From NCBI RefSeq assembly GCF_058153355.1, contig NZ_CM177019.1: a stretch of DNA of 64,000 bases; one strand, written 5' to 3'. Every line of letters begins with the position of its first letter. Position 1 is the first letter of the stretch. A model generated the notes under the pieces. It searched no databases. It saw only the letters and a program-made list of their open reading frames with translations, and was not told the origin of the DNA. Positions 41,440-42,094 of this stretch are shown here, in pieces. The translations under genes and the position numbers were made by a program.

Positions 41440-41706
41440 ATGGACATTAATAACAAAGCCCGCATTCACTGGGCATGCCGCCGTGGTATGCGCGAACTCG
41501 ATATTTCAATCATGCCGTTTTTCGAACATGAGTACGACAGCTTAAGTGATGACGAAAAACGCATCTTTATTCGTCTGCTGGAATGTGACGATCCCGATCT
41601 GTTCAACTGGCTGATGAATCACGGTAAACCGGCCGATGCAGAACTGGAAATGATGGTCCGACTCATCCAGACACGGAATCGGGAACGTGGTCCTGTGGCA
41701 ATCTGA
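41440..41706 (+). CDS. sdhE: FAD assembly factor SdhE (antitoxin CptB)
   Basis: 88-aa ORF. Confidence 0.88.
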
Positions 41707-42094
41707 TTTACGCGTCTCCTGGCGCGCGCAGTGGCTTTCCTTGCTGATTCATGGGCTGGTTGCCGCTGTTATTTTACTCATGCCCTGGCCGTTAAGTTAC
41801 ACCCCGTTATGGATGGTGTTACTTTCGCTGGTGGTGTTTGATTGCGTTCGCAGCCAGCGACGCATTAATGCTCGCCAGGGGGAAATTCGCCTGTTGATGG
41901 ACGGGCGTTTGCGTTGGCAAGGGCAGGAGTGGTGCATCGTCAAAGCGCCGTGGATGATTAAAAGCGGCATGATGTTGCGTTTACGTTCTGATAGCGGTAA
42001 ACGTCAGCACTTGTGGCTGGCAGCCGACAGCATGGACGAAGCCGAATGGCGGGATTTACGGCGGATTTTGTTGCAACAAGAGACGCAAAGATAA
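41687..42094 (+). CDS. ygfX: inner-membrane protein YgfX (toxin CptA)
   Basis: 135-aa ORF with GTG start overlapping the sdhE 3' end by 20 bp; two TM helices. Confidence 0.85.

Follow-up and report, generated by a model that had tools for sequence, protein, structure and literature searches.

The gene pair sdhE-ygfX is known in E. coli, Serratia and Shewanella. In E. coli, overproduction of YgfX was described by Masuda in 2012 to give lemon-shaped cells; YgfX was found to bind FtsZ and MreB and to block their polymerisation, effects that SdhE relieved, as the work is summarized in later papers (PMC8621075, PMC8132199, PMC11205521). The preliminary description of the DNA studied here had named the pair a reported type IV toxin-antitoxin (TA) module, which is in agreement with this literature. 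In Serratia sp. ATCC 39006, sdhEygfX was shown experimentally to be co-transcribed, SdhE is needed for SDH/FRD flavinylation and YgfX is a membrane protein interacting with SdhE (PMC5042078). Regulation by FlhDC, RsmA and RsmC and the effects on prodigiosin are specific to Serratia, and the Fineran laboratory detected no TA phenotype (PMC3985639). The ygfY-ygfX pair of Shewanella oneidensis has the same gene order, experimentally shown co-transcription and an RGxxE motif needed for function, while it differs in that the genes are 37 bp apart, YgfX is 34.8% similar and the phenotypes are not explained by SDH (PMC8621075). The system that defines type IV, CbtA/CbeA (YeeV/YeeU), shares with sdhE-ygfX the claimed FtsZ/MreB targets and the claimed mode of action, an antitoxin acting on the target and not on the toxin. 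CbtA/CbeA and its paralogues are multi-copy and reside in cryptic prophages, and CbtA is a soluble protein. Unlike CbtA/CbeA, the sdhE-ygfX pair occurs once, in the core genome and in fixed synteny, and YgfX is anchored in the membrane. No sequence relationship to CbtA/CbeA was seen, and the only Pfam matches of the pair were Sdh5 and Cpta_toxin.

The window analysed in this study is a stretch of 64,000 nucleotides from contig NZ_CM177019.1 (NCBI RefSeq assembly GCF_058153355.1), and it contains the core-genome sdhE-ygfX operon of E. coli. By ORF listing and direct reading, sdhE (ygfY, cptB) was located at 41440..41706 on the plus strand (ATG start, TGA stop, 88 aa, FAD assembly factor SdhE), and ygfX (cptA) at 41687..42094 on the same strand (GTG start, TAA stop, 135 aa, small inner-membrane protein). 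The span of the pair, the GTG start and the 20 bp overlap given in the preliminary description were all reproduced. The same locus is found in E. coli K-12 as b2897-b2896, with the 20-nt overlap, the GTG start and the neighbours ygfZ and fldB, and RefSeq gives the two genes the same relative geometry in K-12 as in the closest genome. Already known from the literature and RefSeq are the genes, the overlap, the function of SdhE, the TA claim and the dispute about it. The additions made here are modest ones and consist of the depth of overlap conservation, the asymmetric coding load of the overlap and the apparently PH-like architecture of YgfX.

SdhE matched Pfam Sdh5 (PF03937) over residues 7-79 (E 5.1e-26, 90.8 bits, cut-off 27) and the NCBIfam equivalog NF008130 over its full length 1-88 (198.4 bits, cut-off 120). 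It is identical to K-12 b2897 at 88/88 residues, and its matches in PDB were 1x6i, 6c12 (SdhA-SdhE) and 6b58 (FrdA-SdhE), all of them E. coli structures. The RGxxE motif is intact by direct reading and corresponds to R15-G16-M17-R18-E19 (codons cgt ggt atg cgc gaa, 41482..41496, plus strand). This motif contacts the FAD-binding histidine of FrdA, and the role of G16 has been described (PMC5773532). Judged from its 100% identity to the crystallised E. coli protein, the SdhE encoded here should bind SdhA/FrdA and function in covalent flavinylation. YgfX matched Pfam Cpta_toxin (PF07254) over residues 2-131 of 135 (E 4.2e-49, 166.5 bits, cut-off 27.3) and is identical to K-12 b2896 at 133/135 residues (98.5%), with the differences S83C and G103S. 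Alignment to CptA/CptB, proposed earlier as a check of the assignment, was thus passed by both proteins. A sequence search for relatives of YgfX with a solved structure returned none.

Compared with K-12, the two genes showed 25 nucleotide differences, 23 of which were synonymous (7 synonymous and 0 non-synonymous in sdhE, 16 and 2 in ygfX), and the overlap was invariant. Both genes are under purifying selection in this comparison. The window also differs from K-12 by a 10-bp indel in the intergenic region upstream of sdhE and by an IS621, absent from K-12, that lies some 0.4 kb past the ygfZ stop, between this gene and trhA. This IS621 copy encodes an IS110-family DEDD transposase of 326 aa on the minus strand (38856-39836) and is adjoined by a REP-type naRNA4 element (40030-40107). 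Of 5426 complete E. coli genomes, only 110 share the IS621/naRNA4 arrangement (38856-40107, at least 80% of the query); neither K-12 nor the genome that matches the sdhE region most closely has it. Elsewhere in the window, Rfam matches at gathering score were obtained on the minus strand at 24286-24436, 25085-25268 and 35170-35212 for SIB RNA, 6S RNA (ssrS) and ES036 sRNA, respectively. SIB RNA is the antitoxin RNA of the type I Ibs/Sib pair.

The dual-coding overlap, GTGGTCCTGTGGCAATCTGA, is exactly 20 nt long and lies at 41687..41706 on the plus strand, with ygfX in the +1 frame relative to sdhE. Frame 0 encodes SdhE residues 83-88 (RGPVAI) and the stop, while frame +1 encodes the GTG start, YgfX residues 1-6 (MVLWQS) and the first two bases of codon 7 (D7), and the GTG itself spans the Arg83 and Gly84 codons of sdhE. 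Were ygfX not a real gene, or were its start mis-called, the overlap would be an artefact of annotation, and a GTG start with a weak Shine-Dalgarno (SD) sequence would fit such a spurious call. However, from the upstream in-frame stop (41651) up to the first transmembrane helix (TM1), the GTG at 41687 is the only canonical start, and use of the next in-frame starts, TTG at codon 18 and ATG at codon 31, would cost the protein some or all of TM1. The match to the Pfam profile starts at residue 2 (E 4e-49 over residues 2-131), the YgfX family comprises 132 representatives (50% clustering, E ≤1e-3) among 1.84 billion proteins, and the N-terminal MVLWQxxLRxS was kept across the family in a 50-member alignment. 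The 16:2 ratio of synonymous to non-synonymous differences from K-12 and an AlphaFold model of pLDDT 95, in which residues 2-8 are predicted to form an integral strand, also argue against an artefact. Given the single canonical start, the Pfam profile from residue 2 and the conserved N-terminus, the start and the overlap are not artefacts of annotation; this reading was rejected on family, selection, model and start-codon evidence, and we regard it as next to impossible.

The distribution of the locus was followed within the species and beyond. Of 5426 complete E. coli genomes, 5425 contain the 1.2-kb region around the pair (41200-42400), with a median of one location each; it was chromosomal in all 5425, with a single extra place on a plasmid. 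Most of these genomes were 95-99% identical to the window over this region, and just 5 of the 5425 reached at least 99%, so that the window appears to come from a minority E. coli lineage. The best match to the sdhE region was strain 24A16CRGN010 (99.9%). CptA_toxin has been listed as one of only four 'toxins' present at ≥80% in all E. coli sequence types (PMC10790755).

Genomic context was then examined for nine diverse YgfX homologues of 27-57% identity, including those of Leminorella, Erwinia/Pantoea, Plesiomonas and Enterobacteriaceae bacterium LUAb1. Eight of the nine lay directly downstream of a PF03937 gene on the same strand, always in the +1 frame and with an overlap of 20-29 nt, the length being 20 nt in five loci (four homologues) and 23, 26 or 29 nt in the others. 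The shifted starts were an ATG with a 29-nt overlap in Leminorella, a GTG with 26 nt in the Pantoea type and an ATG with 23 nt in locus L008. Where the E. coli-type GTG is missing, ygfX starts further upstream, deeper in sdhE. Since the replacement starts were recruited upstream within sdhE and not downstream, it is the overlap itself that has been retained. The synteny trhA-ygfZ / sdhE-ygfX-fldB-xerD-dsbC-recJ was found in E. coli, in the Pantoea-type locus L006 and in the LUAb1 locus L010, and only its upstream half was kept in the Leminorella and Erwinia/Pantoea-type loci. The one exception was an Accumulibacter-type (beta-proteobacterial) homologue of 34% identity (L007, 1322-1759), which follows a ketoacyl-synthase gene, and no sdhE was found in the 1.3 kb of contig upstream of it. 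Outside Enterobacterales, the YgfX family therefore does not always go with sdhE. In the Plesiomonas MAG (L009, 1305-2975), a flavoprotein with FAD_binding_2 and Succ_DH_flav_C domains (SdhA/FrdA/NadB-like) is encoded convergently to ygfX and is of the kind on which SdhE acts.

A DNA-pattern scan with the junction CGTGGNCCNGTGGCNATNTRA and one genome per species matched at least 120 loci; the pattern favours E. coli-like junctions, and about 70 chance matches were expected in such a collection by our estimate. Among the 120 matches listed, 106 contained SdhE-like and YgfX-like ORFs in the expected frames (YgfX identity 33-99%), 4 were cut by the locus end and 10 were chance matches in unrelated taxa. 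An identical 21-mer junction was present in at least 55 species genomes of the 106 among the matches listed. The first 80 matches listed included Enterobacteriaceae, Yersiniaceae (Yersinia, Serratia, Rahnella), Pectobacteriaceae (Pectobacterium, Dickeya, Brenneria, Lonsdalea) and Erwiniaceae, and several other Serratia species had the same 20-nt junction as the window among the matches listed. With both ORFs matching curated families and the same junction occurring in at least 106 species, the overlapping pair is far beyond a chance finding. Its geometry is kept throughout Enterobacterales and is not universal outside the order, as the Shewanella genes are separated (PMC8621075). In its genomic behaviour the pair is like a housekeeping operon: it belongs to the core genome, occurs once, keeps its synteny and is inherited vertically.

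The signals that could govern expression of ygfX were searched around the junction. No conserved SD was found before the ygfX start, and anti-SD pairing was at or below the in-gene background in most species. In E. coli, weak SD-like GGAA/GGGA motifs are present upstream of ygfX. Several species have a weak SD at sdhE as well, which makes the SD argument a poor discriminator. The RNA fold of the junction in the window was no better than that of shuffled sequences (z = +0.96), and RNAalifold on 8 diverse junctions gave zero consensus pairs; a conserved RNA hairpin masking the ygfX start was rejected on these two results. The classic setting of translational coupling is a non-ATG start without a ribosome-binding signal of its own, placed just before the upstream stop, in which the downstream protein is made at a low rate that follows the synthesis of the upstream one. 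The ygfX start lies 17 nt before the sdhE stop. Overlaps that act by termination-reinitiation are typically 1 or 4 nt, and the longer overlap of 20 nt counts against coupling. From the non-ATG start and the lack of both a conserved SD and a conserved RNA structure at the junction, translation of ygfX probably depends mainly on ribosomes translating or terminating sdhE. The 'tight coupling' that had been proposed from the overlap and the GTG start was a reasonable inference, and it gains support from an overlap kept down to about 27-33% YgfX identity with no conserved SD.

Fused SdhE-YgfX ORFs of 166-217 aa were seen in public metagenome and assembly gene calls (proteins P0004-P0013 and P0021), with the frame switch in or near the overlap. 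They are singletons that switch frame at different points and are thus best taken as indel errors or mutations. A programmed frameshift giving an SdhE-YgfX fusion was rejected, as each fused ORF had a different frameshift point.

The divergent ygfZ / sdhE intergenic region (41189..41439) must contain the sdhE-ygfX promoter. A scan with the sigma-70 consensus gave no promoter-like site for the operon, including none inside sdhE, and direct reading showed a -10-like TACAAT at 41399-41404 with no matching -35. This region is 251 bp long versus 242 bp in K-12, owing to the 10-bp indel (TGATATGCTT) and an opposite 1-bp indel, and it also has scattered substitutions. The terminator scan gave terminator-like matches only inside ygfX, at chance level. 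In the 39-nt spacer between the convergent ygfX and fldB genes, a 7-bp inverted repeat, TGACGGC / GCCGTCA, with a 16-nt loop was found by direct reading at 42098..42127. Its stems are identical to those of K-12 and its loop differs at 5 positions, and the terminator scan made no call on it; this repeat is a possible candidate for a transcript-end hairpin.

The architecture of YgfX was modelled with AlphaFold from a 50-sequence alignment (mean pLDDT 95, pTM 0.77). The model consists of a strand beta1 (residues 2-8), helices 12-31 and 36-62, six strands within 65-112 and a C-terminal helix 118-134. Kyte-Doolittle windows above 1.6 at residues 13-38 and 36-54 agree with the model on two membrane helices. 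On the DNA (plus strand), beta1 would be encoded at 41690-41710, the predicted transmembrane helical hairpin, with a short uncharged loop between its helices, at 41720..41872, and the predicted cytoplasmic domain of six beta-strands and a C-terminal helix at 41879..42088. By the positive-inside rule, R9 and R13 before TM1, the uncharged loop and RSQRRINAR after TM2 suggest that both ends of YgfX are cytoplasmic, i.e. an N-in/C-in topology. In the model, beta1 and the cytoplasmic domain appear to build a PH-like beta-sandwich into which the membrane hairpin is inserted. Foldseek E-values for this PH-like resemblance were ≥0.2, which is not significant, the bPH Pfam models matched none of 50 YgfX family members at E up to 1, and a literature search for YgfX plus pleckstrin found nothing. 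In the model, the hairpin of YgfX sits between strand 1 and strand 2, whereas in membrane-anchored bPH domains it would precede the domain.

This architecture bears on why the junction is so constant. The SdhE side of the overlap, apparently a dispensable tail, is outside the Sdh5 domain (residues 7-79) and mostly past the SdhE segment seen in the chain of the FrdA complex (query residues 6-84). The YgfX side would encode most of strand beta1, the last two beta1 codons lying just downstream. As the overlap-encoded N-terminal strand packs with the C-terminal domain in the model, the constraint that freezes the junction would stem mainly from YgfX. The overlap could also be conceived as a frozen accident without regulatory meaning, in which ygfX is translated independently from a weak GTG site and the 20 nt are kept by dual-coding constraint. 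It would be consistent with this that the overlap encodes most of a strand predicted to be structurally important, that the junction nucleotides are near-invariant, as dual-coding constraint alone predicts, that weak SD-like motifs do lie upstream of ygfX in E. coli, and that the separated Shewanella genes are co-transcribed nevertheless, so that an overlap is not required (PMC8621075). In Leminorella, Pantoea and L008, however, the differing starts were recruited upstream with the overlap retained, and SD-like complementarity before the start was no better than background in most species. We therefore consider a frozen accident improbable.

The TA label is disputed, and it would be wrong to take the pair for a proven TA system. 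As a genuine type IV system, membrane-bound CptA would block FtsZ/MreB polymerisation under some stress, CptB would counteract it at the same targets and the overlap would put the antidote first. This agrees with the E. coli overproduction results of Masuda, with the Pfam name Cpta_toxin, with small, adjacent and co-transcribed genes of which the 'antitoxin' is the first, and with the stress-responsive transcription reported in AIEC and Acinetobacter. The Acinetobacter pair also behaved as toxin and antidote in E. coli, reversal being obtained only at very high antitoxin induction (PMC8132199). On the other hand, many membrane proteins are toxic when overproduced (PMC8621075), and the 'antitoxin' SdhE has a well-established unrelated function in enzyme assembly with solved complexes (PMC5773532; 6c12, 6b58). 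sdhE is widespread without ygfX in alpha- and beta-proteobacteria and eukaryotes and is also present in gamma-proteobacteria (PMC5042078), whereas the range of YgfX is narrow. E. coli deleted of sdhE is viable and was used in flavinylation studies (PMC5773532), a polar loss of ygfX translation being possible in that strain. Besides the negative phenotype mentioned above, the direct SdhE-YgfX interaction reported in Serratia contradicts the non-interacting definition of type IV (PMC3985639, PMC5042078). In Shewanella, overproduction of either protein was mildly toxic and that of both together more so, with no rescue of toxicity; YgfX bound neither FtsZ nor MreB, and deletion of ygfX did not suppress the ΔygfY defect (PMC8621075). 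The core, single-copy, syntenic and vertically inherited pair has no link to mobile elements, and PADLOC defence models gave no match to the locus, which also counts against a TA system. Patchy, multi-copy and mobile-element-linked occurrence is typical of TA systems, not strictly defining, and was not found at sdhE-ygfX. Taken together, a genuine type IV system is unlikely.

The explanation that we favour, and which is probably correct, is a housekeeping operon that carries the disputed type IV TA (CptB/CptA) label and whose membrane protein does harm only upon overproduction. In such an operon, SdhE would bind the free flavoprotein subunits SdhA/FrdA and promote covalent flavin attachment, while the dependence of ygfX on ribosomes from sdhE would keep YgfX low and in a fixed proportion to SdhE. 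YgfX would most likely be the membrane-anchored partner of SdhE, acting at the membrane where complex II/fumarate reductase is assembled, since direct interaction and multimerisation were reported in Serratia. The arrest and lemon-shaped cells upon YgfX overproduction would be an overexpression effect, caused by FtsZ/MreB binding or membrane overload, and not its physiological role. Besides the overproduction results in E. coli and with the Acinetobacter pair, there are further counter-points to this explanation. Deletion of ygfX in Serratia had no discernible effect on motility (PMC5042078), and a two-hybrid assay in Shewanella gave no YgfY-YgfX interaction (PMC8621075).

A more specific proposal, which we put forward as speculative and rather doubtful, is that YgfX is a membrane receptor for SdhE and not a toxin. 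YgfX would be a PH-like domain whose beta1-beta2 loop is replaced by a transmembrane hairpin and whose beta1 is encoded in the sdhE overlap, and its multimer would hold or release SdhE and thereby time flavinylation and complex II/fumarate reductase assembly. If this were true, each ribosome translating SdhE could deliver a fixed small fraction of YgfX, and the reported FtsZ/MreB contacts would represent a real but unexplored connection of the assembly of respiratory complexes with the machinery of cell-envelope growth.

For the annotation of bacterial genomes, inventories of TA systems become too large when sdhE-ygfX is counted among them, and the idea of using the pair as a drug target rests on overexpression data (PMC8132199). 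The conservation of the overlap, its asymmetric coding load and the predicted architecture of YgfX are concrete handles for testing the role of YgfX.
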